Sequence record: SRR20825006_492
Reading direction: 5' to 3' (one strand)
Length of the DNA: 64,000 nucleotides
Shown here: positions 5,726-47,320 of the stretch, one piece after another
How the letters are laid out: every line of letters starts with the position of its first letter
Position numbering within the stretch: the first letter of the stretch is position 1
Translations under genes and position numbers: made by a program
Notes under the pieces: model-generated
Databases searched by the model: none
Told to the model about the DNA's origin: nothing
Seen by the model: the letters and a program-made list of their open reading frames with translations, nothing else

Positions 5726-6478
5726 ATGAATATAAACATATTTGAAAATTCCAGTTTAGGTAGCCAATTTGTTGCTAACCGGATTGGGAAAGTTTTAGCC
5801 GCTCGAAATTTAGTTTCCAAGCCCACGGTTTTAGGGTTGGCAACAGGAAGTACGCCTATTGAGGTTTATGATGAGCTTATTAAGAAGTACCGTAATGAGG
5901 GGTTGAGTTTTAAAAACGTAGTTACGTTTAATTTGGATGAGTACTATCCGATGGAGCCTTCTGATGTGCAAAGCTATTATTACTTTATGCACCAAAATTT
6001 ATTTAATGCTATTGATATTCAGCCGAGTAACGTTTTTATCCCAAATGGCGAAATTCATGAGCATAAAATCATTAAGTATTGCGAACAATACGATGATAAA
6101 ATAGCTGAAGTTGGTGGAATTGATATTCAGATTTTAGGAATTGGAGCTAATGGTCACATTGGTTTTAATGAGCCTGGATCAGAAAGAAAATCAGCTACCC
6201 GATTTGTTACGCTAGATGAGCAAACAAGAAAAGATGCCTCATATACTTTTAATGGTATTGAAAATGTACCAGAAAGTGCAATAACAATGGGCATAGATAC
6301 CATCTTGAAAGCAAAAGAAATTCTAATATTGGCGTGGGGAAAAAGAAAAGCCGAAATCATTAAGCAATGCTTATTTGGTGAGGTTACGAGTACTAAACCC
6401 GCAACATTTTTACAAGCACACCCAAATGTAAATGTTGTGTTAGATGTCGAAGCTGCGTCACTTTTAGATTTAGATTAA
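5726..6478 (+). CDS. nagB: Glucosamine-6-phosphate deaminase
   Basis: LGLATGSTP, FNLDEY, GIGANGHIGFNEPG, AITMGI motifs. Confidence 0.95.
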   Translation: MNINIFENSSLGSQFVANRIGKVLAARNLVSKPTVLGLATGSTPIEVYDELIKKYRNEGLSFKNVVTFNLDEYYPMEPSDVQSYYYFMHQNLFNAIDIQPSNVFIPNGEIHEHKIIKYCEQYDDKIAEVGGIDIQILGIGANGHIGFNEPGSERKSATRFVTLDEQTRKDASYTFNGIENVPESAITMGIDTILKAKEILILAWGKRKAEIIKQCLFGEVTSTKPATFLQAHPNVNVVLDVEAASLLDLD

Positions 6479-6532
6479 AATGAACGTCGAAATAATGAAG
6501 ATAAATATCCTAACAAAAACAAAGGAGTTATA

Positions 6533-7399
6533 ATGAGAAAAATAATAACGTTAATGCTTGCTGCCTTCTTGGTAGTTCCTAGTGTGCTTTTTGCTCAGCC
6601 AGAAGTACCAGTAGAAAAGTGGACCGGTAAAACTATTCTATTGATTGGAGCTCACCCTGATGATGATGGCGGCTCACATGGTACTTTAGCTAAATTACAA
6701 GCAAATGGTAACCAAGTGTACGTAATGCTTTTAACTACTGGTAACGTAGGAACAAGCGACCCAACAATGACTAGAGATCAATTATCTAAAATTCGTCGTC
6801 AAGAAGAAGTTGATGCTTTAAAAGAATTAGGTATCCCAGAAGATCATTATATCAACTTGGGCTACACTGATGGTATGCTAGAGTTTGCTGACAAAGAAGA
6901 AGTTGTTAAGCAAATGGTATATTGGATTAGAAAACTAAAGCCAACAACGCTAATGGGCTTTGATCCTGGCTATGGCTACCAACAATGGCACAAAGCAGAT
7001 CACAGAACTGCTGCTTACTTAACAGTTGATGCTGCACGTGCCGCTGAGTGGAGACTAATTTTCCCAAGCCAAATAATTAACCAAGGCTTAGAAGAGCATA
7101 GTGTATCAGATTACTTGTTCTATAGCTCAACAGGTGATGGTCAAAACACAGTAGTAGACATTTCTGATTTTGCTGAAAACAAAGTCCGTTCTTTGTCTAA
7201 ATATATTAGCCAGTTTACTTCTGCTTTTAAGAACTACACAGGTCCTAACCCAAGTGACTTACCAGGTAACGAAGGTAAAGAATTTGTAGAGCGCATGCGT
7301 CAGCGTGTTTTCGAAAGAGGTACCCTTAACGGTAAGCAAATCGAAAGATTCCGTTACTACAAAGGTGCGCCAGACGGAGCAGGTTCAAGAAGAAATTAG
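6533..7399 (+). CDS. Exported PIG-L/LmbE family deacetylase
   Basis: GAHPDD, RRQE, HKADH motifs; Sec signal peptide ending VLFA. Confidence 0.88.
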   Translation: MRKIITLMLAAFLVVPSVLFAQPEVPVEKWTGKTILLIGAHPDDDGGSHGTLAKLQANGNQVYVMLLTTGNVGTSDPTMTRDQLSKIRRQEEVDALKELGIPEDHYINLGYTDGMLEFADKEEVVKQMVYWIRKLKPTTLMGFDPGYGYQQWHKADHRTAAYLTVDAARAAEWRLIFPSQIINQGLEEHSVSDYLFYSSTGDGQNTVVDISDFAENKVRSLSKYISQFTSAFKNYTGPNPSDLPGNEGKEFVERMRQRVFERGTLNGKQIERFRYYKGAPDGAGSRRN

Positions 7400-7436
7400 A
7401 GTAATATTTATTTCTTGATTCAATAAAAACATAAAT

Positions 7437-7468
7437 AAGCAGTGGGCCTTTTTGGCTTGCTGCTTTTT
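7437..7468 (+). terminator. Intrinsic terminator after nagB-deacetylase
   Basis: AAGCAGTGGGCC-TTTTT-GGCTTGCTGCTT hairpin (with GU pairs) running into a T-tract. Confidence 0.7.
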
Positions 7469-7615
7469 GTGTATTTGTAAAATAATATTATTGTTTATAA
7501 GGGTGCTTATTAGAGATATAATGCCGTAATTAATAGGATGAATTCTATATAATAAATGGACTGGTAGAAAATACAAAGGCAATGATTTTTTTAAGAGGAC
7601 TGGGTATATAACGAT

Positions 7616-8227
7616 ATGCTGCTATTTGCATATCTCGAAGACAATACATCTAAGGAAGGACCTAATAACGACTTTGAGCGTGTGGCCAAGATACGTGCTG
7701 GAGACGAAAAAGCGTTTGAAGAGCTTTTTTTCGAGTATTATAACCAGTTAAGCCGTTTTGCAAATACAATTACTAGATCTAGAGAATTTGCAAGAGATAC
7801 CGTGCAGGATGTATTTCTTAAAATTTGGAGAAATAGAGCTAATTGGGAAATACATGTTTCTATAAAAGTATATCTCTACCAATCAGTTAGAAATCAATCG
7901 CTAAACCTATTAGAGAAGCAAAAAACCCGCCAGCGATTAAATGAAAAACTACAATTAGATCAAAGTAGTTATGTAAACCGCTATTACGAGAGTGATAACT
8001 ATCCAAGTTCAATAAGTGATAGGGAATTAAAGCTTGTTAAAAGAATTTGGGAGGTTGTGGAGCAAATGCCCGAAAGACGAAAATTAGTATTTGAGCTGCA
8101 CCGAAAGCATGGCCTAAGCTATAAGGAAATTGCCAAAGTCTTAGATATTGCCCGGAAGACAGTTGAGAATCATGTAGCTCAGGCGCTACAATTTTTACGA
8201 GACAATATAGATGCTAACGATTATTGA
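7616..8227 (+). CDS. ECF-type RNA polymerase sigma-70 factor
   Basis: GDEKAFEELF, DTVQDVFLKIW (region 2), GLSYKEIAKVLDIARKTVENH (region 4 HTH); adjacent to FecR. Confidence 0.93.
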   Translation: MLLFAYLEDNTSKEGPNNDFERVAKIRAGDEKAFEELFFEYYNQLSRFANTITRSREFARDTVQDVFLKIWRNRANWEIHVSIKVYLYQSVRNQSLNLLEKQKTRQRLNEKLQLDQSSYVNRYYESDNYPSSISDRELKLVKRIWEVVEQMPERRKLVFELHRKHGLSYKEIAKVLDIARKTVENHVAQALQFLRDNIDANDY

Positions 8228-8236
8228 TATTTTTCA

Positions 8237-8265
8237 TAGGGGTAGTTTAAAACTCTACTGTCTTA
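8237..8265 (+). promoter_or_regulatory. Putative ECF-sigma promoter upstream of fecR-susC-susD (TAGGGGTAG-N13-TGTCTTA)
   Basis: Lies between the sigma stop and fecR start; duplicate of the motif at 5640-5668. Confidence 0.65.
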
Positions 8266-8295
8266 CTAGAAATATACACCACTAAAATAACGAAA

Positions 8296-9345
8296 TTGGA
8301 TATCAAGCTTGTAGCTAAATATTTAGCTAAAGAGTGTACAAACGAAGAAAAAGCAACTCTTAATGAGTGGCTTTCAGAGAACTCAGAAAATGCAGATCGC
8401 ATGAAAGAGTTTGAAAGGATATGGGAAGTTTCTGGGAAGAATAACGAGTTTGAAAATATCTTTAATACGGAATTAGATTGGGCAGTGCTACAAAGTAGAA
8501 TTGATGACGAGTCTTTGATGCCAAATTCTCGTAGTGGTGCAAGAGGCGGTATGTTTTCACTTAACTCAGCTTGGTCTGTTGCAATACGCGTTGCCGCTAT
8601 TTTTCTTTTGGCGGCTTTGTTAGGTACTTATACCTACAAGTCTTTTTATGTACAAGAATCAGAGGTTGTGGAAAATGTTTTTCGGGAAATCTCTATGGCT
8701 AAAGGCCAGCGTGGTGGTGTAACGCTTTCTGACGGAACTAAAGTGTATCTAAACTCAGATAGCAAAATTGTATTACCTAGCGTATTTGAAAATGATTTGC
8801 GAGAAGTCTATTTAGAAGGTGAGGCATTTTTTGATGTTGCAAAAAACCCTAATAGACCTTTTATAATTAAAACAAAAGGCGCGATAGTACAGGTTCTAGG
8901 AACTTCTTTGTCGGTTAGAAATTATGCGGATGACAAAGCAGTTCAAGCAGTTGTAGAAGAGGGTGTAGTTTCCTTCCGCGCAGAAGATAAATCGCTGAAT
9001 GAGGGTGTTATACTTACTGCGGGTAAGCTTGGGCGGTTGAATTTAGAGAACAAAGTAATTGTAAAAGAACAAGTAGACGACCTAGAACTCTACTTGAGCT
9101 GGAAAGAAGGATATTTGAAGTTTAATGATGCGTCAATGAAAGAAGTGGCGCAGCAGCTAGAGCGTAAATATGATATTGAGGTGAACTTCGTCTCGAAAGA
9201 TATCGCAGAATTGCATTTAACAGCCGAATTAAAAAGCCGGTCTATTAACAATGTACTTCAAACAATAGCTACGTCGCTAGGACTTCAATATAAGCTAAAC
9301 CAAGATCGTGTTGATTTTAGCCTGGAGGGTGGGTCTAATAATTAA
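8296..9345 (+). CDS. FecR-family anti-sigma factor
   Basis: Single TM helix, then VTLSDGTKVYLNSDS, REVYLEGEAFFDVAKNPNRPF, VQVLGT, SWKEG; TTG start. Confidence 0.93.
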   Translation: MDIKLVAKYLAKECTNEEKATLNEWLSENSENADRMKEFERIWEVSGKNNEFENIFNTELDWAVLQSRIDDESLMPNSRSGARGGMFSLNSAWSVAIRVAAIFLLAALLGTYTYKSFYVQESEVVENVFREISMAKGQRGGVTLSDGTKVYLNSDSKIVLPSVFENDLREVYLEGEAFFDVAKNPNRPFIIKTKGAIVQVLGTSLSVRNYADDKAVQAVVEEGVVSFRAEDKSLNEGVILTAGKLGRLNLENKVIVKEQVDDLELYLSWKEGYLKFNDASMKEVAQQLERKYDIEVNFVSKDIAELHLTAELKSRSINNVLQTIATSLGLQYKLNQDRVDFSLEGGSNN

Positions 9346-9443
9346 TATAGACCTCAAAAACAGATATAGAATTGCATTTTTGGAAGCGCTTTTACAAAGA
9401 GCTAGGCGAAATACTAAATAATAACTAGTTATAGAGGACACGT

Positions 9444-12400
9444 ATGAGAACAAAAGTTACACAAACGATACGGATTGCTGTATGCTTTTTCTTGCTAGGA
9501 GTGTTAACACTTCATGTCGGAAATGCATCTAGTGCCAATGCACAGTTAATAACTTCCTTATCAAATAACCTACAAACTAAATATTATTCTGTTCAGTTAT
9601 ACTCCAACAGTATTCCTGAGCTTAAGAATGTTATTTCAGTTAGAAAGGATAACGCGCTTTTAGGGGAAGTTTTAAAAGACATTGCGCAAAAGTCGAGTTT
9701 AGGTATAGCCATAAACTCCGAAATTGAAATTCTTGACAAGAGAGTAACCGTTAATTTAATGGATATCTCTACTGGGGATGCACTTCAGTATGTTCTTTTG
9801 GGAACTGGTTATGAAGCTGCAATTTCAAAGACTCGCGAAATTTTATTGATTAAAAAAGCAGTTACGGAAAAGTCTGAAGCAAATGTAGAAAAAGTCTTAA
9901 CAGGTATCGTTAGAGATGCTGGTAACGACGAAACTATTCCTGCAGCTAACGTTTTTGTAAAAGGCACAAATATTGGTACTAGTACAGATATTAATGGAGA
10001 GTTCAAACTAACTGTTCCAGACGATGCTACTACGTTGGTATTTCGTTTTGTTGGTTACAAGAACCTAGAAGTGCCAATTGTAAATAACCAAACTTTCTAT
10101 GAAGTAAGTCTAGAGTCAGATTTAGTGTCTTTCGAAGACTTAGTTGTTGTTGGTTATGGTACTCAGCAACGAACTGAAGTAACTGGTGCGGTATCTTCAA
10201 TTAGAACTGAAGAAATCCAGAATGTGCCTGTTTCAAGTTTTGAAAATGCTTTACAAGGAAGAATGGCTGGTGTAAACGTTGCAGAATCTACAGGTGAGCC
10301 AGGAGCTTCTCCTCAAATTCTTATTCGTGGTACAGGCTCTATTTCAGCAGGTAATGACCCTTTATATGTAATTGATGGTGTTCCGATTTCTAAGAACACA
10401 AGTTTACAATCTAGTTTAGGAAGCCAACGTGAATCATTTCAGCCTCCTAAAGCAAATCCACTTTCTACCTTAAATCCAAACGATATTGAGTCTATCGAAG
10501 TTTTGAAAGATGCTTCTGCAGCGGCCATTTATGGTTCTCGTGGATCTAATGGTGTTATTTTGGTAACTACAAAGAAAGGTAAATCGGGTGCAGCTCGTGT
10601 TACTTTTAGTGGTTATGGTGGTGCATCTACGGTTTTTAATAAACCAGATATGATGAATTCTGAAGAATTGATTGCATACACAAAAAGTGCTCGTAATAAT
10701 AATTATTTGCAATCTGAAGATCCAACAAATCCAGCTAGCCCAGGATACAACGCAAGTTATAGCCCTGATAATAACAATGGTAGAGATGCCACGGCAGCGT
10801 CACCATCAGCGAACTATTTGATTCCAGAAACTATGGTAAATTGGGATGGTACCGATACTGATTGGTTAGATCTAATTTTTAGCTCAGCAACTATGCAGAA
10901 CTATGATCTTACAGTTTCAGGTGGTACAGAATCAACTCAGTACTTCCTATCTACAGGTTATTTGAATCAAGAAGGTGTTTTGGATGGTTCTGAATTTGAC
11001 CGTTATACAGTTAAGTTAAACTTAACTCGTAAAATTACCGATAGAGTTGAAATTGGAACTTCTATTAACACTGCACTTACTGAGCATAATCGTTTACCGG
11101 CAAATTCACCTTATTTTGGTTCACCTCCGGGCATTATTTACTCAGCAATGGTTACTTCACCAACTGTTAAGCCATATAATGCTGATGGTACTATTAACCA
11201 GTTAGACAATCAGTCTCATCTTGGTGGCGGTACTACATCTTCTAGTAACCCACTAGCTATAATGGAATTTATTGAAGAGGAGATTAATGAAAACCGAATC
11301 TTTGGTAATATGTATGGTAATATCGAAATTAACGAAAATCTTACATTTAAGAGTTTAGTTGGTTACGATTTAGATAACTATAAGCAATCGTTTTATAGAG
11401 GCACTCAGTTCCTTTATCGCGATCAAACTTCACCACAACCGTTTGCACAAAGTAGTGCAGGTAATAGCTTTAACTGGTTATGGGAAAACACTTTGAATTT
11501 CACAAAAACCTTTAACCTCGATCATTCTGTAAATGTTGTAGCTGGTTACTCTGCTCAAAAGCAAGCCGACGAACGTAGTGTAATTACTGCGACTGGTTTT
11601 ACTGATGATCAAGTTAAAACAGTGAATGGTGGTATTATTTCTAGTGGTAATCAGATAAAAGAGGAATGGAGTATAGTTTCTGCTTTAGCTAGACTAAACT
11701 ATGCATATAAAGGAAAGTACTTATTTACAGGTACTGTTCGTTCTGATCGCTCTTCACGCTTTGGTGCAGATGTTCAAACAGGGGTATTCCCTTCGTTCTC
11801 TCTAGGTTGGAGACTAAGTGAAGAATCATTTATGCCTGCTAAAGACGCCATTAATGAGCTTAAACTTCGCGGTAGTTATGGTGTGACGGGTAACTTCGAG
11901 ATTCCTAATTATGGATCTATTGGTTTACTTGGAACGGCAAACTATCCGTTTGGTGGTTCAGAAGAGATTGGTGTAGGTCCAGCTACGTTAGGTAACCAAG
12001 AGTTAACTTGGGAAACTACTTACCAATTTGATTTTGGTATTGATTATGCAATGTTCAATGACCGTATTTATGGATCATTCGATTATTACACAACAACTAC
12101 TAAAGATTTATTATTGTTCGTAAACGTTCCAGCATCTACTGGCTTTGAAACAGCGTTAACAAACATTGGTGAAGTTGAAAATGTTGGACTTGAGTTCTCT
12201 ATCACTACCAGAAACATGGTTGGTGAATTCCAATGGGCAACTGATTTCAACATCGCTCAGAACAAAAATAAAGTTACTAAGCTTGGACCAGAAGGTGATC
12301 CCATCTTAAGTGCTGGTGCTGCTGGAAGTCGTCACATTACAATGATTGGCGAAGAAATTGGTAGCTATTATGGGTATGTGTTTGATGGTATTTATCAAAA

Positions 12401-13040
12401 CCAAGCAGAAATAAATGCTGCTCCTACCGATTTGTTAGCTCCAGATGCTCAACCAGGTGATATCAGATTTAAAGATGTTAATGGTGATGGCTTTATTACT
12501 ACAGATGACCGTACCGTTATAGGTAGTTACCATCCAGACTTCACTTATGGTATTACTAACCGTTTTAACTACAAAAACTTTGATATGAGCGTATTCATTC
12601 AAGGTGTTGAAGGCCGTGAAGTAATGAACTTAACTGCTCGTCACATGTTAAATGGTGAAGCTAACTTCAACTCATATGCACAACTAAACGACCGTTGGAT
12701 TTCTGAATCACAGCCAGGAAACGGAAAAGATCCACGTGCAGATCGTAACACTGGAGCTCACGGTAATAATAACCGCGAATCTTCTTATCAGGTTCAAGAT
12801 GGTAGTTACCTGAAAATTAAAAATGTTACTCTTGGTTACACTTTACCACAAGACAAAGTTGGTAAGTATGTAAGCCGTGCTCGTATCTATGTATCTGCTA
12901 CTAACTTAGCAATGTTTACTGATTACATCGGGTTTAACCCAGAAGTTAGTTTGCAAACAAATAGCTTAACCCCTGGGGAAGATTACGGTGCTTATCCGTT
13001 ATCTAGAACTATCCAGGCTGGTATAGACATAGCATTTTAA
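9444..13040 (+). CDS. SusC/RagA TonB-dependent transporter with N-terminal signalling extension
   Basis: VVVGYGTQ, PLYVIDGVP, LNPNDIESIEVLKDASAAAIYGSRGSNGVILVTTKKG, LTWETT; C-terminal Phe; long N-terminal STN-like region. Confidence 0.96.
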   Translation: MRTKVTQTIRIAVCFFLLGVLTLHVGNASSANAQLITSLSNNLQTKYYSVQLYSNSIPELKNVISVRKDNALLGEVLKDIAQKSSLGIAINSEIEILDKRVTVNLMDISTGDALQYVLLGTGYEAAISKTREILLIKKAVTEKSEANVEKVLTGIVRDAGNDETIPAANVFVKGTNIGTSTDINGEFKLTVPDDATTLVFRFVGYKNLEVPIVNNQTFYEVSLESDLVSFEDLVVVGYGTQQRTEVTGAVSSIRTEEIQNVPVSSFENALQGRMAGVNVAESTGEPGASPQILIRGTGSISAGNDPLYVIDGVPISKNTSLQSSLGSQRESFQPPKANPLSTLNPNDIESIEVLKDASAAAIYGSRGSNGVILVTTKKGKSGAARVTFSGYGGASTVFNKPDMMNSEELIAYTKSARNNNYLQSEDPTNPASPGYNASYSPDNNNGRDATAASPSANYLIPETMVNWDGTDTDWLDLIFSSATMQNYDLTVSGGTESTQYFLSTGYLNQEGVLDGSEFDRYTVKLNLTRKITDRVEIGTSINTALTEHNRLPANSPYFGSPPGIIYSAMVTSPTVKPYNADGTINQLDNQSHLGGGTTSSSNPLAIMEFIEEEINENRIFGNMYGNIEINENLTFKSLVGYDLDNYKQSFYRGTQFLYRDQTSPQPFAQSSAGNSFNWLWENTLNFTKTFNLDHSVNVVAGYSAQKQADERSVITATGFTDDQVKTVNGGIISSGNQIKEEWSIVSALARLNYAYKGKYLFTGTVRSDRSSRFGADVQTGVFPSFSLGWRLSEESFMPAKDAINELKLRGSYGVTGNFEIPNYGSIGLLGTANYPFGGSEEIGVGPATLGNQELTWETTYQFDFGIDYAMFNDRIYGSFDYYTTTTKDLLLFVNVPASTGFETALTNIGEVENVGLEFSITTRNMVGEFQWATDFNIAQNKNKVTKLGPEGDPILSAGAAGSRHITMIGEEIGSYYGYVFDGIYQNQAEINAAPTDLLAPDAQPGDIRFKDVNGDGFITTDDRTVIGSYHPDFTYGITNRFNYKNFDMSVFIQGVEGREVMNLTARHMLNGEANFNSYAQLNDRWISESQPGNGKDPRADRNTGAHGNNNRESSYQVQDGSYLKIKNVTLGYTLPQDKVGKYVSRARIYVSATNLAMFTDYIGFNPEVSLQTNSLTPGEDYGAYPLSRTIQAGIDIAF

Positions 13041-13066
13041 TGAGAATATTTAAAAAGGATAAGATT

Positions 13067-14461
13067 ATGAAAAAACGACTGTTAATATTACTTATTCCCA
13101 TGCTAGTTTTATCTTGCGGGGAAGACTTTACGTTATTGAGTCCCATTTCTGAAAGAAATGTGGGGAGCTTTTATAAAACACAAACAGATTTAGAAGTTGC
13201 AATTACAGGTGCTTACGGTGCTTTGCAGTCTAATGGTAATTTCGGCGTAAATTACATTCTGTTTATGGAAATGAGAGCTGACAACGCTGATAACGGCGGT
13301 GGCGATACAGGGCTTGCAGCAACGCTAGCTCAAATAAATAAATTCCAGGAAATTGCCACTGCAAGTGAGCTGAAAAGCACGTGGGCTGCATCCTATAAAG
13401 GAATTGCATGGTGTAATACCATACTTGCTAAAATTGATGGAGTCGACTTTACTGACGATGTAGTAAAAGATAAGATTAAAGGGGAAGCTCTTTTTATCCG
13501 TTCATTACTTTATTATCACTTAGCTGTGATCTTTGGAAACGTTCCAGAGCAGTTTGAAGAAGTTACAACTCCTGATATAACGATCAATCAGGTTGGTGCA
13601 AGTGCTATATTTGCAAGAATTGCAACTGATTTAGAAACGGCTGAAGGTTTACTTCCACTTACTACTAATAACGGTAGAGTAACAAGCGGCGCAGCTGCAG
13701 CATTGCTTGGTAGAGTATACTTACAAGCAGGAAATAAAGCTGCCGCAGTAGCACCTCTTCAAAGAGTAGTAAATTCTGCAGCTGGTTACGACTTAGTTGA
13801 TGACTATGCTAATATTTGGGGCGTTGCAAATGAGCTTAACAAAGAATCAATCTTTGAAGTTCAATTTGAAGCAGGCACAAGCGAAGGTAGTTCTTACACT
13901 GAGATGTTTACTCCTAACGGCTTAGGCGGTGGAGTAGGTGGCGGTGTTAAACCACAGATCGAGACTGCTGATGTACTAGCAACTTTCGAAACTGGTGATG
14001 AGCGATTTGCTGGCACTTTTACGCAAGTAGTAGATACCACTACTAATGATACTACTTACTACGTAGGTAAGTATGATAGTGCGCCAACAGTAGCCTTTGA
14101 TGGTGATAACAACTGGATTGAAATTCGTTATGCTGAAGTTCTTTTAAATTTAGCTGAAGCATTAGGTGAAGGCGTTCCTGCTTATAACTTAATCAATGAA
14201 GTTAGAGACAGAGCTGGTTTATTACCTATCAGTGCAGTTACTCCTGGTACTTTTGATGAAAAACTTCTGCACGAACGCCGTGTTGAGTTTGCATTTGAAA
14301 ATAAGCGCTGGCCTGACTTATTACGATTTGGCGTTGCTAAATCAGTAATGGCAGCTCATCGAGGAATTCCTGAGTCTCAAGTGAAGCTATTGCTTCCAAT
14401 CCCACAGAGTGCAATTGATGTTGCTCCTGATGAGATGACTCAGAATTCTGAACATAACTAA
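13067..14461 (+). CDS. SusD/RagB surface glycan-binding lipoprotein
   Basis: Lipobox LVLSC after MKKR (start 13067; ORF track 13040); GEALFIRSLLYY, IRYAEVLLNLAEA, ERRVEFAFENKRWPDLLR, LLPIPQ. Confidence 0.94.
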   Translation: MKKRLLILLIPMLVLSCGEDFTLLSPISERNVGSFYKTQTDLEVAITGAYGALQSNGNFGVNYILFMEMRADNADNGGGDTGLAATLAQINKFQEIATASELKSTWAASYKGIAWCNTILAKIDGVDFTDDVVKDKIKGEALFIRSLLYYHLAVIFGNVPEQFEEVTTPDITINQVGASAIFARIATDLETAEGLLPLTTNNGRVTSGAAAALLGRVYLQAGNKAAAVAPLQRVVNSAAGYDLVDDYANIWGVANELNKESIFEVQFEAGTSEGSSYTEMFTPNGLGGGVGGGVKPQIETADVLATFETGDERFAGTFTQVVDTTTNDTTYYVGKYDSAPTVAFDGDNNWIEIRYAEVLLNLAEALGEGVPAYNLINEVRDRAGLLPISAVTPGTFDEKLLHERRVEFAFENKRWPDLLRFGVAKSVMAAHRGIPESQVKLLLPIPQSAIDVAPDEMTQNSEHN

Positions 14462-14480
14462 TTAAATAGTAGTAGCTCTT

Positions 14481-14516
14481 ACTGGGCTAGCCAGACGGTT
14501 AGCCCAGTTATTTTTT
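14481..14516 (+). terminator. Hairpin/terminator after susD
   Basis: ACTGGGCTAGCC-AGAC-GGTTAGCCCAGT followed by TATTTTTT. Confidence 0.7.
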
Positions 14517-14535
14517 AATAATTAATTTTAAGTAA

Positions 14536-15441
14536 ATGAAAAAAAATTCGATTGTCCTTTTTATGATTTTGTGTTTTTCAACAGTTTCTCTGTTCGCACA
14601 AACAAATACAGCTAAAGACGATAGGATAAGAGTAATAGCTATTTTTGCTCACCCAGATGATGGTGACGCTAAAATGGGCGGAACAGCAGCATTATTAGCC
14701 GAATTAGGCTATGCAGTAAAGTTTGTTGCTATCACAAATGGTGATGCTGGCCACCAAACTGAAGGCGGTGGAGCATTAGCAAAGAGAAGACGTGCAGAAG
14801 CTCAAGAATCAGCACGAAGATTAGGAATTGATGAATACAAAGTATTAGATAACCACGACGGTGAACTTCTTCCAGAATTGCATGTTCGCCAACAAGTTAT
14901 ACGAGAAATTAGAAACTGGAATGCTGATATCGTGCTTGGTTTGAGACCAAACGATTACCACCCTGACCACAGATATGCAGGCGTACTAGTACAAGATGCA
15001 GCTTATTTAGTTGTAGTCCCAAATGTAACACCAGATACTCCTCCTTTAACAAAAAACCCAGTATTCCTTTATATGGAAGATGGTTTTCAAAAGCCAAATC
15101 CATTTAGCCCAGACATTGTTGTGGGTATTGATAAAGTTATAGATAAGAAAATTGATGGTTTAGATGCTCATGAATCACAGATGTATGAGTGGTTACCATG
15201 GGTAAGTGGAAGATTAGACCAAGTACCAAAAGACAAAAAGCTTAGAAAAGAAATGGTGAAAAGAGGCTACGTAGAAAGAGGTTCTCTATCAGCAGAAAAG
15301 AAAAAAGCTTTAGAAAAATGGTATGGCAAAGCTGAAGGCTCCAAATTTAAGTATGCTGAATCTTTCGAGATTTGTGAGTACGGAAAGCAGCCTACAGAAG
15401 CAGAAATACGTGAGTTATTTCCAATGTTCCAAAAGAAGTAA
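14536..15441 (+). CDS. Exported PIG-L/LmbE family deacetylase
   Basis: FAHPDD, RRRAEA, DYHPDHR, AHESQ motifs; signal peptide ending SLFA. Confidence 0.9.
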   Translation: MKKNSIVLFMILCFSTVSLFAQTNTAKDDRIRVIAIFAHPDDGDAKMGGTAALLAELGYAVKFVAITNGDAGHQTEGGGALAKRRRAEAQESARRLGIDEYKVLDNHDGELLPELHVRQQVIREIRNWNADIVLGLRPNDYHPDHRYAGVLVQDAAYLVVVPNVTPDTPPLTKNPVFLYMEDGFQKPNPFSPDIVVGIDKVIDKKIDGLDAHESQMYEWLPWVSGRLDQVPKDKKLRKEMVKRGYVERGSLSAEKKKALEKWYGKAEGSKFKYAESFEICEYGKQPTEAEIRELFPMFQKK

Positions 15442-15489
15442 TCGTTTACTTCAATAAAAAATTTAAATAAACACTACCAAATAAATACT

Positions 15490-16740
15490 ATGAAACGTAA
15501 TCATTATCTAGTAGGTCTAATTGTTTTAACTTTTTTCGTAATCTCTTTTTTAACCAATATAATTGGGCCTTTGGTGCCGCAGATTATTGAAGATTTCGAT
15601 CTTAGCTTAACCCTAGTAGCAATACTACCGTTTGCATTCTTTATAGCTTATGGTGTGATGTCTATCCCCGCAGGGATGATGATAGAGCGCTTTGCTGAAA
15701 AAACTGTGATGATGATTGCTTTCTTAGTAGCATTCTCAGGTGCGTTACTTTTTGCATTGTTCCCTCAGTACTTAGTTGCGGTAGTTTCTTTGTTCCTAAT
15801 TGGATCAGGAATGGCTATGCTTCAAGTAGCCATTAACCCTCTTCTTAGAGTTTCTGGTGGAGAGGAGAATTTTGCTTTTAATTCTGTAATGGCTCAATTC
15901 TTTTTCGGATTAGCTTCGTTTATAAGCCCTTTAGTATACTCATACTTGGTACTTAATATTGGTAGTAATGATATGGGCTTTTTCCTATCAACTCTTACAA
16001 ATTTAGTTCCGGCAGAGCTTCCTTGGGTTTCTTTATACTGGTTATTTGCTATGGTTTCTCTAATAATGGTAGTGATTATTGGGGTTTCCAAATTTCCAAA
16101 AGTTGAAAAGAATGAAGATGAGAAAGTGGGTGCTTTAGAAACACACATGGAATTATTGAAGAACAAAAAAGTACTTCTTTTCTTCCTAGGTATATTCGCT
16201 TATGTAGGCGCAGAACAAGGTGTGGCTAATTGGATTTCAGAATTTTTATCATCATATCACGGATATGACCCTCAAACTGTAGGTGCTTCTACCGTTTCAT
16301 GGTTCTGGGGAATGATGACCGCTGGTACTTTCCTCGGCTTATTCCTACTTAAAGTTATGGACAGCAAGAAAATATTAGTACTGTTCACATCTATAGCTTT
16401 AGTGTGTTTAGCTCTAGCTTTATTTGGGCCAGGATCACTTGCTTTATATGCATTTCCAGCCATCGGATTTTTTATAGCAGTTATGTGGCCAATCGTCTTT
16501 TCATTAGCACTAAATTCAATTGAAGAACATCATGGCACCTTTTCTGGAATATTAGTTACTGGTATAGCAGGTGGTGCTATAGTTCCTCTAATTGTAGGTT
16601 CATTGGGCGATATATTTGGCTTGCGTATTGGGATGCTGTTTCTGTTTATCGCATTCGGGTACATATTAAGCATTGGATTTTGGGCAAAGCCACTAATCAG
16701 TAATAAGACTATTGATTTCGGAGCTAAGGATAAATCCTAA
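15490..16740 (+). CDS. Sugar MFS transporter (FucP/GluP/NagP-like)
   Basis: FAFFIAYGVMSIPAG, LQVAINP, YVGAEQG, MWPIVFSLAL, GGAIVPL; about 12 TM helices. Confidence 0.88.
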   Translation: MKRNHYLVGLIVLTFFVISFLTNIIGPLVPQIIEDFDLSLTLVAILPFAFFIAYGVMSIPAGMMIERFAEKTVMMIAFLVAFSGALLFALFPQYLVAVVSLFLIGSGMAMLQVAINPLLRVSGGEENFAFNSVMAQFFFGLASFISPLVYSYLVLNIGSNDMGFFLSTLTNLVPAELPWVSLYWLFAMVSLIMVVIIGVSKFPKVEKNEDEKVGALETHMELLKNKKVLLFFLGIFAYVGAEQGVANWISEFLSSYHGYDPQTVGASTVSWFWGMMTAGTFLGLFLLKVMDSKKILVLFTSIALVCLALALFGPGSLALYAFPAIGFFIAVMWPIVFSLALNSIEEHHGTFSGILVTGIAGGAIVPLIVGSLGDIFGLRIGMLFLFIAFGYILSIGFWAKPLISNKTIDFGAKDKS

Positions 16741-16778
16741 TTACACGTAGAAAAAAAGACGTTTTAAAAGAGATAAAA

Positions 16779-17639
16779 TTGGATACTAAAAGTCTTATAG
16801 GGATAGACTTAGGGGCAACCAATGTTCGTGTTGCCAGAGTTATCAACCAAGAAATAGAAGCAATTTCTTCACAGCCGATAGTCCAAGCCGAGAATTATAA
16901 CGAGCTTATTGATCAAATTGTCAGCTTAATAGAAGAACAAATCTCTCCAGAGATTTCAGCCATAGGAATAGGCGTTCCAAGTGTTGTAGATGTAGAAAAA
17001 GGGATTGTATATGATGTGCAAAATATCCCTTCTTGGAAAGCGGTTCCTTTAAAAGACATTTTAGAGGAAAAATTTAATAAGCCCGTTTTTATAAACAACG
17101 ATGCTAATTGCTTTGTTCTTGGTGAGAAATATTTTGGAAAAGCTCAAGCTTATTCATCTGTAGTAGGTTTAATTTTAGGAACAGGCTTTGGCTCAGGTTT
17201 AATCATAAATGGGCGCCTTTTCTCTGGTGCAAATTGTGGAGCTGGCGAAGTAGGAATGCTTCCATATAAAGATTCCATTTTTGAACATTATTGCTGTGGC
17301 CAATTCTTCGATATCCACAAAAATAATAGTGGTGTTGAGACTTATAAAAATGCCTTATTAGGCAATCCTGAAGCACTTCAAGACTATATCGAATTTGGAA
17401 CACATGTTGGCAATGCCATAAAAGCTGTTGTCTATGCTTACGATCCCGAATTCATTGTATTAGGTGGTAGCGCAAGTAAAGCTTTTCCATTTTTTGAAAA
17501 AAGTATGCTCGAAGCTATGGCAGACTTTGCATATCCAAAGTCATTAGAAAAATTAATAATAAGTGTCTCAGAGTTAGATCAGGTAGCCGTTTTGGGTGCG
17601 GCAGCTCTCGCTCTCGACCAACAAATCCCAACCAAATAG
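16779..17639 (+). CDS. ROK-family sugar kinase
   Basis: GIDLGAT, NNDANC, LGTGFGSG, GAGEVG motifs; no N-terminal HTH. Confidence 0.9.
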   Translation: MDTKSLIGIDLGATNVRVARVINQEIEAISSQPIVQAENYNELIDQIVSLIEEQISPEISAIGIGVPSVVDVEKGIVYDVQNIPSWKAVPLKDILEEKFNKPVFINNDANCFVLGEKYFGKAQAYSSVVGLILGTGFGSGLIINGRLFSGANCGAGEVGMLPYKDSIFEHYCCGQFFDIHKNNSGVETYKNALLGNPEALQDYIEFGTHVGNAIKAVVYAYDPEFIVLGGSASKAFPFFEKSMLEAMADFAYPKSLEKLIISVSELDQVAVLGAAALALDQQIPTK

Positions 17640-17651
17640 GAAATAAATGTT

Positions 17652-20339
17652 ATGTATGCATATTTAAAGAAACACACTAAACTTACACTAGTATTTCTAG
17701 GTCTTCTAGTAATGGTAGTAGGGTGTGGGAATAGTGGAACTAGTACTAAAATTCCAATTACTGTAGAAGGAAACATTCCCGGTTCCCCACAGGTTTTTGG
17801 CGTCCCTATCCCGAAAGGCGAATTATTTTCTCCAGATCATGTTCGTGTTCTTGGTTCAGATGGTAAAGAAATTCCATCTCAAATTACTAAAGTAAGCACT
17901 TGGGCACCTGCGGATAATAGCATCAAGTGGATTTGGGTATTTTTCTTTACTGAAGAAGAAAGCAATTATGAAGTAGAGTATGGTAAGTCGGTAATTAATG
18001 CCCGCAACTACGAACAAACTCTTACAGTTCGTAATAACCAAAGGCCGACTGGTGAAGTTATTGTAAATACAGGCCCGCTTAGGTTTACAGTAGAAAAAGG
18101 CGAGGGTGGCGGCTTTGGTAACGCTCCTGCTGGTAGTGGTTTTATGGATAAAGTAGAACTGGACTTGAATGGCGATGGTTTTGGTGATGAAGATATTATT
18201 GCTGTTGGGGAAGCTGGTAGAAGTTCATTCTTAGATCTATTAGATGACGCAGGCTTAGATCGCTCAAAAGCAGTGGTAACTAGAACAGTAAAAGAACTAG
18301 GTACTGGTCCATTATATGCTATTATTAGAGTTGAAGGTGATTATCATTACGGACGTGACGATAATAATATCGCTCCATTTGTTACAAGAATTCATGCCTA
18401 TGCCGGTAAAAGCTATGTAAAGGTTCAGCATTCTTTTGTTTATACAGGTATTCCTGATAAGCATAAAGTGCTTCCTGGTGAATATGAAGTTATTGCTACT
18501 GAGAATGGCGAAACTATGGATGAAAGCATATACGCTAAAGATCCTGGCTTTATGCAACCAAACGACAGAATCGCAGCTACAGGACTATCTTTAAAGTATA
18601 ATATGGCTAAAGATAAAACAGTTACTACTGCATATTATAAAGGCAAATGGTGGAGTGAAGATGGAAGTACTATTGTTCAATCTCCATTAACTGGTAATGC
18701 TTCAGTTTTACAAGTTGGGCCGAATGAATCTCAAATTCCGCCTTTACAAAATTCTTCTCCAGATGAAAGATTGGAAGGTGTTTTTAAGTCAACTGTTACT
18801 ATGAATGGTAATAAAAATGTTGATGCTGAACGTGCACCAGGTTGGTTAGATGTATCTGACAACAAATGGGGCGTTACAGTGGGTTTTAAAAGTTTCTTTG
18901 AAGAATATCCGAAAGAAATAAAAGTAGAAGAGGGCCAGGACAAACTAGTTGCCTATATTTGGACCCCATCTGTAGAGCCAATGAGTTTCGCTAAAAAAGA
19001 CAATAAAAATGATAGCGGAATGATCGGAAACTTTGCTCAAGGCTTAGCAAAGACAACCGAAATGGTGTTCAATTTCCATAAGAAAAGTACAAATGAGCAA
19101 GTTGAGAAAATTGCTAAAAGCTTTATGGATTCTCCAGTAACTCATGCTTCACCAGAATGGTATGCTGAAAGTGAAGCATTCGGTAAAATGACAGAAAGTT
19201 TAGATAAATATGCTACCTACGAGCGTGGCTTAGATTATAAAATGAACTGGATGAAGTTCAACCAAAAATGGGAGCCTTGGTATGGCATGTTAAATTACGG
19301 TGATAATTTAACATACTACTACGGTTACGATTGGTCGCAATGGACAAACAATGAGCCTGGTAACGATTACATGTGGTGGTTACAGTTTATAAGAACTGGT
19401 AACCCAATGTATTTCAAAACGGCACAAGCAGCTAGTATGCATACTATGGATGTAGATAATATCCATTGGCCAAAAACTCCTGTTTACATTGGTGGCACTA
19501 ACGAATCAATTCACGCATTCCAAAATGAAGATATGCCAAAAGGCTCTCCTTATGTAGGAATGGGACGTCGCCATGCTGCTCAACATTACACTTCTTTGTT
19601 AAGTGCTCACGTTTGGGTTCCTGGCTGGATTACTTCTTATTATTTAGATGCTAACCATCGTGGTCTAGAAGTAGCTATGGAAACAGGTGATTATTATGTA
19701 CGCAGAATATTCGGAGATCACGGTTTACGCGGTCGACGTTTATATCTATCTGTTTGGAACTTATCTGAAATCTATGACGCTACTAAATTGGCGAAATATG
19801 GCGATGAGCTAAAAGAACGTGTAGACATTATGCTTGAACTTCAAAATCACCCAGATCAAGGTGGTGAAATTGCAATCAATCGTTATGGATATTCTCAGGT
19901 GTATATAACCAATGGTTTACGTAAGTATTATCAGTTAACTGAAGATGATAGAGCTAAAACAGCTATGATTGATCATGCTCGCAGATTAAGAGACGTTCCA
20001 CCTCTAAATCATGACATGGAATCTTACTTATCATCTATTAGTAGCTTAGTTCTTGGTTACGAGTATTCAGGAGAGAAAAGCTTTTTAGACGAAGCCGTAA
20101 AACGTGCTCAGTATTTAAAAACTGATGAACTTGCTCAAGATTTCGAGTCATATGAGAATCAAAGAATACTTGCAGATGCTTTAGAAGAGTCTAGTCATTT
20201 TCCAAAAGATCCAGGTGCACGTCGCCCGCCGATTTGGCAAATTACAAATGGACTGCGAGTATTTGGTTGGACAAGTATCTATAATGTACCTTATTTAGAA
20301 TATTGGTTGGAAAAGGAAAACTATCCAGCTGACAAGTAA
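17652..20339 (+). CDS. Large lipoprotein, YetA/PcRGLX (PL26 exo-rhamnogalacturonan lyase)-like
   Basis: Lipobox VVGC. Motifs FGVPIPKG, SIKW, VNTGPL, GPLYAIIRVEG, WYGMLNYGD, WTNNE, QFIRTG, HTMDVD, GMGRRH recall the YetA/PcRGLX family (recognised from memory). Confidence 0.6.
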   Translation: MYAYLKKHTKLTLVFLGLLVMVVGCGNSGTSTKIPITVEGNIPGSPQVFGVPIPKGELFSPDHVRVLGSDGKEIPSQITKVSTWAPADNSIKWIWVFFFTEEESNYEVEYGKSVINARNYEQTLTVRNNQRPTGEVIVNTGPLRFTVEKGEGGGFGNAPAGSGFMDKVELDLNGDGFGDEDIIAVGEAGRSSFLDLLDDAGLDRSKAVVTRTVKELGTGPLYAIIRVEGDYHYGRDDNNIAPFVTRIHAYAGKSYVKVQHSFVYTGIPDKHKVLPGEYEVIATENGETMDESIYAKDPGFMQPNDRIAATGLSLKYNMAKDKTVTTAYYKGKWWSEDGSTIVQSPLTGNASVLQVGPNESQIPPLQNSSPDERLEGVFKSTVTMNGNKNVDAERAPGWLDVSDNKWGVTVGFKSFFEEYPKEIKVEEGQDKLVAYIWTPSVEPMSFAKKDNKNDSGMIGNFAQGLAKTTEMVFNFHKKSTNEQVEKIAKSFMDSPVTHASPEWYAESEAFGKMTESLDKYATYERGLDYKMNWMKFNQKWEPWYGMLNYGDNLTYYYGYDWSQWTNNEPGNDYMWWLQFIRTGNPMYFKTAQAASMHTMDVDNIHWPKTPVYIGGTNESIHAFQNEDMPKGSPYVGMGRRHAAQHYTSLLSAHVWVPGWITSYYLDANHRGLEVAMETGDYYVRRIFGDHGLRGRRLYLSVWNLSEIYDATKLAKYGDELKERVDIMLELQNHPDQGGEIAINRYGYSQVYITNGLRKYYQLTEDDRAKTAMIDHARRLRDVPPLNHDMESYLSSISSLVLGYEYSGEKSFLDEAVKRAQYLKTDELAQDFESYENQRILADALEESSHFPKDPGARRPPIWQITNGLRVFGWTSIYNVPYLEYWLEKENYPADK

Positions 20340-20352
20340 TTAATATATTTCT

Positions 20353-21828
20353 ATGGGATCTATGCTAGCTTTTGGTAAGCGCTCAGGTTTTTTTGCTGGG
20401 TTGATTGTATTCATAACGTTATTAATCATTCCAGCTCCTGAGGGCTTGACAGATGCCGCATGGAAAACAGCTGCTGTAACAATTTTAATGGGAATTTGGT
20501 GGATTACTGAAGCCATTCCCATTTCAGCAACAGCGCTGGTTCCTATTGTATTATTTCCGGTTTTAGGGATTTTTAGCATTGGAGATTCAACATCTCCATA
20601 CGCTAACCCTCTTATCTTTCTATTTATGGGTGGTTTTATAATCGCCTTAGCAATGGAAAAGTGGAACCTGCATCGGCGTATTGCAATAACTATTGTTAGT
20701 TTTGTAGGTATAAAACCGTCCTCAATAATTATTGGTTTTATAATTGCTGCTGCGTTTTTAAGTATGTGGGTAAGCAACACCGCTACTGCAATAATGATGT
20801 TGCCTATAGCAATGTCTATTCTAGATCTTATTGATAGAGAAGAAGGTAGTAGTAAGATTAATTTCGAAATTGCACTTATTCTAAGTATCGCTTATGCTTG
20901 TAATATCGGTGGGATGGGAACCTTAATTGGAACACCTCCAAACGCGTTACTCGCTGGCTTTGTACTTGAAAATTATGGCATCGAAATTGGCTTTTTTGAT
21001 TGGATGATGGTTGGCGTTCCTATAATGCTTATATCACTTCCTGTAATGTATTTGGTACTCACTAAAATTGTATACCCTGTAAAACTTAAAGTTTTACCAG
21101 GCGGTGAAGATTTAATTCGCAATCAGCTTAAAGAACTTGGTAGTATTACCTCTCAAGAAAAGAAAGTAGCTTTTGTATTCGTATCAGCAGCCTTAATGTG
21201 GATTTTTAGACCTTTACTGGCCGATTTCCTCCCTGGACTTTCTGATGCTGGTATTGCAATCGGAGCCGCTGTTATTTTCTTCATGATTCCTGCTAATAAA
21301 GAAGAAAATACATTTCTCTTGAAATGGTCTGATACAAAGAAATTACCATGGGGAGTTCTTATTCTCTTTGGTGGTGGTTTAAGTATGGCCTCAGCAATTA
21401 GTAAAACAGGACTAGCCACATGGATTGGCTCCGGAATCGGAAGTTTAAATACATGGCCAATTCTATTACTCATTTTAATTGTTATAGCACTTATCGTTTT
21501 CTTAACGGAAATGACGAGTAACACTGCTTCAACTGCAGCATTTTTGCCAATATTGGCATCTGTAGCAATCGGCTTAGGTGAGAATCCTTTATTATTTGCA
21601 ATTCCAACAGTGCTAGGTGCAAGTTGTGCGTTTATGCTTCCTGTTGCAACGCCTCCAAATGCTATCGTTTATGGAAGTGGTAAAATTACCATTCCAGAAA
21701 TGTCTAAAGCAGGGTTGTGGCTCAATCTGGTGTTTATTGTAATACTAACAGCAGCGTCTTACACGCTCATAAGTTGGGTATTCGGAATCGAGCTTGGCGT
21801 ACTTCCTGAATGGGCTAAGCTAGGATAA
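20353..21828 (+). CDS. DASS/SLC13 sodium-coupled anion (dicarboxylate/sulfate) permease
   Basis: WWITEAIP, LSMWVSNTAT, IGTPPN, LTEMTSNTA, AFMLPVATPPNAIV. Confidence 0.92.
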   Translation: MGSMLAFGKRSGFFAGLIVFITLLIIPAPEGLTDAAWKTAAVTILMGIWWITEAIPISATALVPIVLFPVLGIFSIGDSTSPYANPLIFLFMGGFIIALAMEKWNLHRRIAITIVSFVGIKPSSIIIGFIIAAAFLSMWVSNTATAIMMLPIAMSILDLIDREEGSSKINFEIALILSIAYACNIGGMGTLIGTPPNALLAGFVLENYGIEIGFFDWMMVGVPIMLISLPVMYLVLTKIVYPVKLKVLPGGEDLIRNQLKELGSITSQEKKVAFVFVSAALMWIFRPLLADFLPGLSDAGIAIGAAVIFFMIPANKEENTFLLKWSDTKKLPWGVLILFGGGLSMASAISKTGLATWIGSGIGSLNTWPILLLILIVIALIVFLTEMTSNTASTAAFLPILASVAIGLGENPLLFAIPTVLGASCAFMLPVATPPNAIVYGSGKITIPEMSKAGLWLNLVFIVILTAASYTLISWVFGIELGVLPEWAKLG

Positions 21829-25958: not shown

Positions 25959-25965
25959 AATTCGA

Positions 25966-27630: not shown

Positions 27631-27821
27631 TTAAATTTTAAGATGATAGAAAGTCTCTACTTAGAAGAGCATTTCAAAATTGTAGCTGTAAAAAGATTAT
27701 AAGCGAATCAGAAGAAATGGGTAAAAAATGAGTAAATAAATAATCACATATGGAAATTAACAGCGATATCTTTTATCGTGACGAATTAAATAGTTCAAAG
27801 CATAAGTTAGGTTAGATAAGA

Positions 27822-47274: not shown

Positions 47275-47320
47275 TATGACATTTGTTTTTCAAGTAGTTA
47301 GATTTAAAAAAAACTGTGTT

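Follow-up and report, generated by a model that had tools for sequence, protein, structure and literature searches.

The locus described here occupies positions 5,726 to 21,828 of SRR20825006_492, a 64,000-nucleotide stretch of DNA (below, the window) from a Balneolaceae bacterium, the proteins of which have their nearest named relatives in Balneola and Gracilimonas. It comprises eleven genes, in which a SusC/SusD uptake pair and its regulators are combined with putative amino-sugar enzymes, two carriers and a distant relative of PcRGLX, the exo-rhamnogalacturonan lyase of Penicillium chrysogenum that belongs to polysaccharide lyase family 26 (PL26). All of them lie on the + strand, and each gene that the original prediction had placed here corresponds to an open reading frame (ORF) at the coordinates below, given with the scores of its matches to Pfam or NCBIfam models:

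5726..6478, + strand: NagB, a short (250 amino acids) glucosamine-6-phosphate deaminase; TIGR00502, 266.3 bits (cut-off 236.9)
6533..7399, + strand: PIG-L1, a secreted de-N-acylase of the LmbE/PIG-L family; PF02585, 88.2 bits
7616..8227, + strand: ECF sigma factor of the Bacteroidota type; TIGR02985, 150.3 bits (cut-off 126.4)
8296..9345, + strand: FecR-type anti-sigma factor; PF04773, 67.1 bits, and PF16344, 54.7 bits
9444..13040, + strand: SusC-type TonB-dependent transporter; TIGR04056, 928.9 bits (cut-off 368.25)
13040..14461, + strand: SusD-family lipoprotein; PF07980, 99.6 bits, and PF14322, 89.1 bits
14536..15441, + strand: PIG-L2, a secreted de-N-acylase of the LmbE/PIG-L family; PF02585, 90.8 bits
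15490..16740, + strand: MFS sugar permease of the GluP/FucP/NagP group; gluP, 161.5 bits (cut-off 202.55), and NagP, 89.5 bits, both under the cut-off
16779..17639, + strand: ROK-family sugar kinase; PF00480, 157.6 bits, no equivalog cut-off reached
17652..20339, + strand: PcRGLX(PL26)-like lipoprotein of 895 amino acids; PF19501, 25.8 bits, PF21345, 49.2 bits, and PF21346, 34.1 bits, all above the cut-offs
20353..21828, + strand: DASS sodium-coupled anion symporter; TIGR00785, 334.1 bits (cut-off 198.6)

The assignment to a family is firm for NagB, both PIG-L proteins, the ECF and FecR regulators, SusC, SusD, the ROK kinase and the DASS carrier. NagB further aligns with the long NagB-like model NF002557, over the N-terminal half of that model. 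The solved proteins nearest to the ROK kinase are the N-acetylglucosamine (GlcNAc), N-acetylmannosamine and glucose kinases (90–97 bits), and it is proposed to act as a glucosamine (GlcN) kinase, with the MFS permease as the proposed glucosamine importer. The susC and susD genes are adjacent on the same strand and overlap at position 13040, forming the pair by which a polysaccharide utilization locus (PUL) is recognized. SusC carries an N-terminal extension of ~150 residues before its CarboxypepD_reg domain, and its match to TIGR04056 begins at residue 151. In profile scans against Pfam and NCBIfam none of the eleven proteins matches a NagA, glycoside hydrolase (GH) or sulfatase family, which agrees with what had been read from the sequence originally; the candidate carbohydrate-active enzymes of the locus are the two de-N-acylases of the PIG-L family and a single protein distantly related to PL26.

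Both PIG-L proteins contain the motif AHPDD together with a distal HPDH in PIG-L2 and H..DH in PIG-L1, and thus possess the LmbE/PIG-L metal site, which together with the catalytic Asp is made up of HxDD and a distal His (PMC4101496). The equivalent of the conserved Arg53 of BshB, the deacetylase of bacillithiol synthesis, is kept in them as well. Sequence inspection shows N-terminal signal peptides in PIG-L1 and PIG-L2 and a lipobox in the PcRGLX-like protein, while NagB and the ROK kinase have no signal peptide, and this distribution fits the periplasmic de-N-acylation that was envisaged at the outset. Since the orthologues of the PcRGLX-like protein from KSB1 and Pedobacter carry plain signal peptides, a periplasmic location appears to be the common denominator for this protein.

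The gaps between the genes from SusC to DASS do not exceed 75 bp. The two strongest terminator-like hairpins, with 12-bp stems and a T-run, are located at 7437–7465 after PIG-L1 and at 14481–14508 after SusD, which suggests separate nagB–PIG-L1 and susCD units with attenuated read-through into the genes from PIG-L2 to DASS. A hairpin 3' of susD is usual in PULs, and the N-terminal extension of SusC fits signalling to the FecR/ECF pair.

Conservation of the cluster and its anion carriers

A genome scan for relatives of the PcRGLX-like protein gave 317 matching stretches, 308 of which encode a relative, and 80 of these 308 loci were taken with 10-kb flanks. Their synteny was compared by tblastn with the window proteins and by all-against-all clustering of ORFs, and the two methods agree; three high-GC Salinibacter-type loci (L067, L070 and L074), in which the simple ORF caller missed the PcRGLX gene, are covered by tblastn alone. 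A core of SusC, SusD, PIG-L, MFS, ROK and PcRGLX-like genes recurs among the 80 loci in several orders of Bacteroidota, in KSB1 and in Caldithrix, and the arrangement is therefore not due to chance. Its range takes in marine Balneolaceae, Salinibacter, soil Pedobacter, freshwater Sediminibacterium, KSB1 and Caldithrix, with protein identities of 50–90%, and Gracilimonas tropica DSM 19535, Gracilimonas halophila KCTC 52042, Daejeonella oryzae DSM 19973 and Pedobacter gandavensis are among its cultured carriers.

Forty-four loci have 8 kb or more of sequence on each side (full-flank loci), and all counts out of 44 refer to them. A PIG-L gene of either kind is found in 43 of these and SusC, SusD and the MFS permease in 41 each, the last being 59–88% identical in related loci. 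The ROK kinase is present in 40, FecR in 33, ECF in 32, DASS in 27 and an SDF-family carrier in six. The gene content, the family assignments, the predicted compartments and the conserved synteny can be regarded as established. The occurrence of the PcRGLX-like orthologue is patchy: at E <= 1e-100 it is encoded in 23 of 301 sampled Bacteroidota genomes, in 19 of the 49 from the family of the window and in 12 of the 18 from its genus.

Of the PIG-L proteins, PIG-L2 is the one that related loci retain most often. In five Balneola loci PIG-L1 is present and PIG-L2 missing, so that the two look interchangeable. A secreted PIG-L fusion of 830 residues is found in Sphingobacteriales (L085, 18628–21129), and its C-terminal 600+ residues have no Pfam match. 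NagB is located inside the cluster in five loci (L043, L044, L056, L061 and L071, by tblastn; the L044 copy is of the long form) and, in four of five other Balneolaceae genomes, ~1.1 kb upstream of ECF, which bears out its original inclusion in the system.

Among the gene clusters that recur in the 80 related loci there is no NagA. Ten neighbour clusters from these loci, either recurrent or restricted to a lineage, were scanned, and none matched a GH family. No pectin genes occur in the genomic context of the PcRGLX-like gene, and there is no sign in the cluster of a surface enzyme or depolymerase. Since the set of proteins is compact, leads from periplasm to cytoplasm and contains no surface depolymerase, the imported compound should be small.

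Two further observations concern individual neighbours. Thioredoxin-like (TlpA/Redoxin) proteins were considered as members of the cluster and set aside, as they accompany ~8 of the 80 loci, which was judged to be no more than chance for Bacteroidota. The Sediminibacterium locus L060 (2760–15900) has no SusC/D pair nearby; it contains PIG-L2 and the PcRGLX-like gene, and around these are genes for two oxidoreductases of the Gfo/Idh/MocA family and a TIM-barrel protein similar to xylose isomerase, as well as for a glycerate kinase (DUF4147/MOFRL) and an L-lactate permease.

The DASS protein of the window has the Na+/dicarboxylate carriers NaDC3, NaDC1 and VcINDY as its nearest solved relatives (266, 255 and 230 bits). 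An anion carrier is encoded within the cluster in 33 of the 44 full-flank loci, either DASS or, in Sphingobacteriales and Chitinophagales, DctA; the SDF-family carrier of L085 is a DctA C4-dicarboxylate transporter (NF002461, 543.4 bits, cut-off 513). For three of the eleven apparently carrier-less loci (L045, L046 and L075) a DctA gene, its product 59–60% identical, is found immediately upstream of ECF, just outside the 10-kb flank, which brings the total to 36 of 44. The carrier is thus swapped between orders, not lost.

The presence in one and the same cluster of two unrelated carrier families with the same substrate class argues for a C4-diacid as a product, and this is the strongest clue to the function of the locus. 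From the genes, the two products are probably glucosamine and a C4-diacid, with DASS and DctA as the proposed dicarboxylate importers. A small conjugate in which GlcN or GlcNAc is linked through oxygen to a C4-dicarboxylate is a more likely substrate than chitin oligomers. The original prediction had assumed an N-acylated amino-sugar oligomer or conjugate, and the integral DASS/DctA carrier points to a conjugate with a C4-dicarboxylate and away from an oligomer of the chitin type.

The PcRGLX-like protein

The PcRGLX-like protein, by which the cluster is defined, is a true but distant relative of PL26. A profile built from 16 members of its clade has PcRGLX as the sole match in the PDB (E 4.4e-27). 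In a Foldseek search with the AlphaFold model the top matches are PcRGLX chains (E ~1e-18, best 1.1e-18; 15–16% identity; template-modelling score, TM, 0.36–0.39), and beta-sandwich matches to GH38 and GH36 come next at ~1e-6. The homology to PL26 means that the locus does hold a candidate bond-cleaving enzyme. The earlier statement that the locus has no glycoside hydrolase stands as worded, and misleads if it is taken to mean that no glycan-cleaving enzyme is present, since this protein likely does the cleaving.

The clade is tight, with at least 50% identity across phyla. In a protein library clustered at 50% identity it is covered by two representatives that score 1369 and 1013 bits, followed at a distance by a protein with 370 bits, and the PcRGLX superfamily as a whole comprises 3450 representatives at E <= 0.001 in this library. 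A Daejeonella locus (L050; 6268–8943 and 18804–21302) contains a second PcRGLX-like paralogue, which is 47% identical to the window protein.

The alignment reveals a conserved block of the toroid domain, WYG..DYGD ... RTG ... H..DVD..H, that is common to the clade and PcRGLX. The catalytic residue of PcRGLX was deduced here solely from a difference between PDB sequences: a single Tyr-to-Phe change, presumably inactivating, sets 5xqo, the substrate complex, apart from the wild type 5xq3. The loop that holds this Tyr is hypervariable across the superfamily (72 full-length representatives and five clade members aligned). By sequence alignment only, the Tyr falls into an insertion relative to the clade profile, and the loop of the clade is shorter and Tyr-free; lyase chemistry is for this reason only a possibility in the clade. 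The PcRGLX-like protein is the most conserved member of the cluster and likely the one that cleaves the bond between amino sugar and aglycone, and its chemistry may be that of a lyase or of a hydrolase.

PcRGLX itself acts as an exo-lyase on Rha-(1->4)-GalA, that is, between rhamnose and galacturonic acid (PMC13501991). This homology and the anion carrier of the cluster could indicate that the PcRGLX-like protein is a true exo-lyase on hexosamine-(1->4)-uronate units, that the carrier takes up the unsaturated uronate, and that the locus serves for fragments of an amino-sugar/uronic-acid glycan, for instance a bacterial polymer of the heparosan, hyaluronan or teichuronic type. We consider such a substrate improbable. 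GH88, GH105, KduI/KduD and uronate isomerase are unmatched among the ten neighbour clusters scanned, and the carrier that replaces DASS is an over-threshold DctA, by family a carrier of C4-dicarboxylates and not of hexuronates. In addition, nothing in the clade aligns with the Tyr of the PcRGLX substrate complex, and the surface depolymerase that a polymer would call for is absent.

Proposed pathway and candidate substrates

For the locus as a whole, we give an even chance to its being a trans-envelope-regulated SusC/D uptake system of which the substrate is no polymer but a small amino-sugar conjugate that yields glucosamine and a C4-diacid. We infer every catalytic step of this pathway, as well as the identity of the substrate. 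The SusC/D pair, controlled by the ECF sigma factor and the FecR anti-sigma factor, would bring the compound into the periplasm, where the secreted PIG-L enzymes would take the N-acyl group off the glucosamine of the conjugate and the PcRGLX-like enzyme would split glucosamine from the acidic aglycone. Glucosamine would then enter through the MFS permease and the C4-dicarboxylate through DASS, or through DctA in other orders. The ROK kinase would convert glucosamine to glucosamine-6-phosphate (GlcN-6-P), from which NagB would produce fructose-6-phosphate and ammonia.

The natural compounds known to contain GlcN(Ac) glycosidically joined to a C4-diacid, here malate, are bacillithiol (BSH) and its precursors GlcNAc-malate and GlcN-malate. 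Two enzymes that act on bacillithiol compounds, BshB as a deacetylase and Bca as an amidase, are described as members of the PIG-L family, Bca being the enzyme that hydrolyses the Cys-GlcN amide of bacillithiol conjugates (PMC4101496). It can be argued that the glycosidic oxygen of GlcN-alpha-1,2-malate is beta to the C4 carboxylate, which is the geometry that a polysaccharide lyase uses at a uronate, and with this geometry a lyase-type fold could release fumarate. The bacillithiol family, that is, bacillithiol, its disulfide and conjugates, and GlcNAc- or GlcN-malate, is our leading candidate for the substrate, put forward tentatively. With such a compound the PIG-L enzymes would have the role of an amidase, as Bca does, or of a deacetylase, as BshB does, and the PcRGLX-like enzyme would release fumarate by beta-elimination or malate by hydrolysis. 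Both PIG-L proteins have their top NCBIfam matches in the models of BshB1 and BshB2, which is offered as support for bacillithiol; against the BshB1 model TIGR04001 they score 110.1 (PIG-L2) and 77.8 bits (PIG-L1), below the equivalog cut-off of 182.5.

The rest of the genome was examined in G001, a near-identical genome used as a stand-in for that of the source organism, which carries the locus at 100% identity and is 99% complete. Its bacillithiol genes form a complete set, with bshA at 559, bshB1 at 272.2 and bshC at 442 bits, all above the cut-offs, and from these genes the organism is predicted to make bacillithiol itself. The bshC gene is above its cut-off in 284 of the 301 sampled Bacteroidota genomes, and in all five other locus-bearing genomes tested, including KSB1 and Caldithrix. 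Bacillithiol or N-methyl-bacillithiol (N-methyl-BSH) is described as widespread, one marine Bacteroidetes strain included (PMC6282198). As this organism and nearly all of the sampled Bacteroidota produce it, bacillithiol should be common in their habitats.

It is also hypothesized, with considerable doubt, that the locus is dedicated to scavenging BSH, its disulfide, N-methyl-BSH and GlcNAc-malate released by other bacteria. The secreted PIG-L amidases would strip the cysteinyl or acetyl group, and a PL26-derived "glucosaminyl-malate lyase" would free fumarate and glucosamine, both to be imported and burned. Four of the mostly Cytophagales loci that have no carrier nearby encode a flavoenzyme similar to sarcosine oxidase and N-methyltryptophan oxidase (MSOX-like), which could then demethylate N-methylcysteine. 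Its gene is positioned between SusD and PIG-L2 in the Cytophagales loci L051 (3299–6562), L055 (3303–6564) and L082 (6617–7846), and on the opposite strand, adjoining the PcRGLX-like gene, in L073 (8491–9702); the L051 protein scores 233.7 bits, under the cut-off of 257. L051 and L055 also contain a Glyoxalase_3 protein and a DUF2911/TPR protein.

Several observations weigh against the proposed conjugate pathway or its bacillithiol version, in addition to the Tyr-free loop of the clade. The AlphaFold model of the PcRGLX-like protein is of moderate quality (predicted local distance difference test, pLDDT, 67.6). Arg109 of BshB, reported to be important for substrate binding (PMC4101496), is replaced in the position before HxDH by Tyr in PIG-L2 and Trp in PIG-L1, and is kept in the organism's own BshB1. 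No orthologue of bshA, bshB1 or bshC is present in any of the 80 loci (E <= 1e-20). Co-occurrence of bshC with the locus was considered as evidence and discarded as uninformative, the baseline being too high (284 of 301 genomes for bshC against 23 of 301 for the locus). Among the 19 runs listed there was no RNA run with the locus. DASS and DctA are absent nearby in eight of the 44 full loci, mostly from Cytophagales, and L060 has its lactate permease and glycerate kinase in place of DASS/DctA.

The missing carriers are what would be expected if the substrate were another GlcN glycoside, without a diacid, and the carriers were accessory or unrelated. Such compounds include the mycothiol-type GlcN-inositol, fragments of glycosylphosphatidylinositol (GPI) anchors and aminoglycoside-like molecules, and the PIG-L family is known to act on many GlcNAc-alpha-1-X conjugates (PMC4101496). 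L060 and L061 carry Gfo/Idh/MocA and xylose-isomerase-like TIM-barrel genes. Both of these families are also used in inositol catabolism. However, the swapping of DASS and DctA across orders is hard to call an accident, and no inositol-pathway family recurs across the loci, so that we hold a glycoside of this kind to be highly improbable.

The solved relatives of PIG-L2 also speak against bacillithiol, as diacetylchitobiose deacetylases (69.3, 69.2, 66 and 63.6 bits) are slightly ahead of BshB (62.2 and 49.8 bits). They are in favour of a locus for chitin or chitosan oligosaccharides with a deacetylate-first route of the Thermococcus type, which is essentially what the original prediction had proposed. 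SusC/D would import chitobiose or short oligomers, PIG-L would deacetylate the non-reducing GlcNAc, the PcRGLX-like protein would be a new exo-beta-glucosaminidase, and glucosamine would follow the route through MFS, ROK and NagB. The presence of NagB, ROK and an NagP/GluP-like MFS permease is in line with this flow, as is the absence of NagA from the locus. It leaves the DASS/DctA carriers of 36 out of 44 full loci unexplained, though, and GH18, GH19 and GH20 are unmatched among the ten neighbour clusters scanned. Furthermore, the only characterized homologue of the cleaving enzyme is a lyase that acts beside a carboxylate, and GH18 is absent from G001. A chitin locus is thus unlikely.

Other amino-sugar genes of G001 bear on the suggestion that the route is independent of NagA, which applies to the locus and is less clear for the organism. 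The best NagA match in G001 is a protein of 325 amino acids that scores 191.9 bits, under the cut-off of 225.65, and covers model positions 55–349 of 380; its gene (L001, G001:C4:3836-7756, ORF 1507-2484) is located directly after a sodium/solute symporter and before argD. The search for nagA, GH20 and GH18 that had been recommended thus gives a NagA-like gene under the cut-off, two GH20 genes away from the locus and no GH18. A second, long NagB is also encoded in G001.

Returning to the small GlcN–diacid conjugate, the papers searched contained no description of the cluster, of bacillithiol degradation beyond Bca or of a characterized bacterial member of the PcRGLX clade, nor was the combination of PIG-L with PL26-like enzymes found in it. 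The view that the system is undescribed is upheld to this extent, and its central enzyme is one without a characterized close relative. Assignment of the substrate would give a function to a large uncharacterized branch of the PcRGLX superfamily and would show how SusC/D systems handle small acidic amino-sugar conjugates. If this substrate is bacillithiol, it would also show how the thiol most widespread among bacteria is recycled in nature as a source of carbon, nitrogen and sulfur. Scavenging as outlined above, if true, would be the first case in which a SusC/D system serves for the catabolism of a low-molecular-weight thiol, and it would add a new reaction to those of the polysaccharide-lyase fold.

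Surroundings of the locus and related systems

In the window the locus is preceded by genes for a sodium/solute symporter, a DUF1330 protein and an amidohydrolase, and followed by WbqC, GltX and M14 peptidases. Outside the family these neighbours are not kept together with the cluster. The remainder of the window is housekeeping in nature, including a dcw cell-division cluster. At 24222–29201, two tandem M14 carboxypeptidase genes (- strand) and the gene that follows them, of which the orthologue in L014 encodes an S13 D-Ala-D-Ala carboxypeptidase, are syntenic with the locus within Balneola only. The protein encoded at 47261–50890 (1209 residues) contains five Laminin_G_3 repeats and ends in a sorting tail for type IX secretion, while the ORFs at 29686–30759 and 39250–40749 (357 and 499 residues) have no Pfam match at E <= 1e-5.

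PcRGLX (PDB codes 5xq3, 5xqg, 5xqj and 5xqo) has a three-domain build in common with the locus protein. The two are separated by their low identity and TM score and by the gap between the clade and the next protein (1013 against 370 bits), and the context of the locus protein is that of amino-sugar and C4-diacid uptake, not of pectin.

The chitin pathway of Thermococcus and Pyrococcus consists of the deacetylase Dac, the exo-beta-glucosaminidase GlmA, a sugar kinase and a GlcN-6-P deaminase. The locus resembles it in that a PIG-L enzyme would act before phosphorylation, followed by conversion of GlcN to GlcN-6-P and fructose-6-phosphate, and PIG-L2 is about equally close to Dac and BshB. Unlike this pathway, the locus has no GH35-type GlmA or chitinase, includes a dicarboxylate carrier, and has enzymes that are predicted to be periplasmic and fed by SusC/D.

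The PIG-L proteins of the locus share the HxDD and His metal motif and the Arg53 equivalent with BshB and Bca. They differ from BshB, a cytoplasmic enzyme, in being secreted, in their scores below the BshB1 cut-off and in having Tyr or Trp at the position of Arg109. The true BshB1 of G001 is a separate protein, apart from the two PIG-L proteins of the locus.

With the NanO/NanU-type SusC/D systems, which serve for small sugar acids, and with classic Bacteroidota PULs regulated by ECF and anti-sigma factors, the locus has in common a SusC/SusD pair under ECF/FecR control and an N-terminally extended SusC. The best NCBIfam match of its SusD is NanU, at 73.2 bits against a cut-off of 425. In contrast to the NanO/NanU systems and to classic PULs, it contains no CAZy glycoside hydrolase, and its target is likely a small conjugate.

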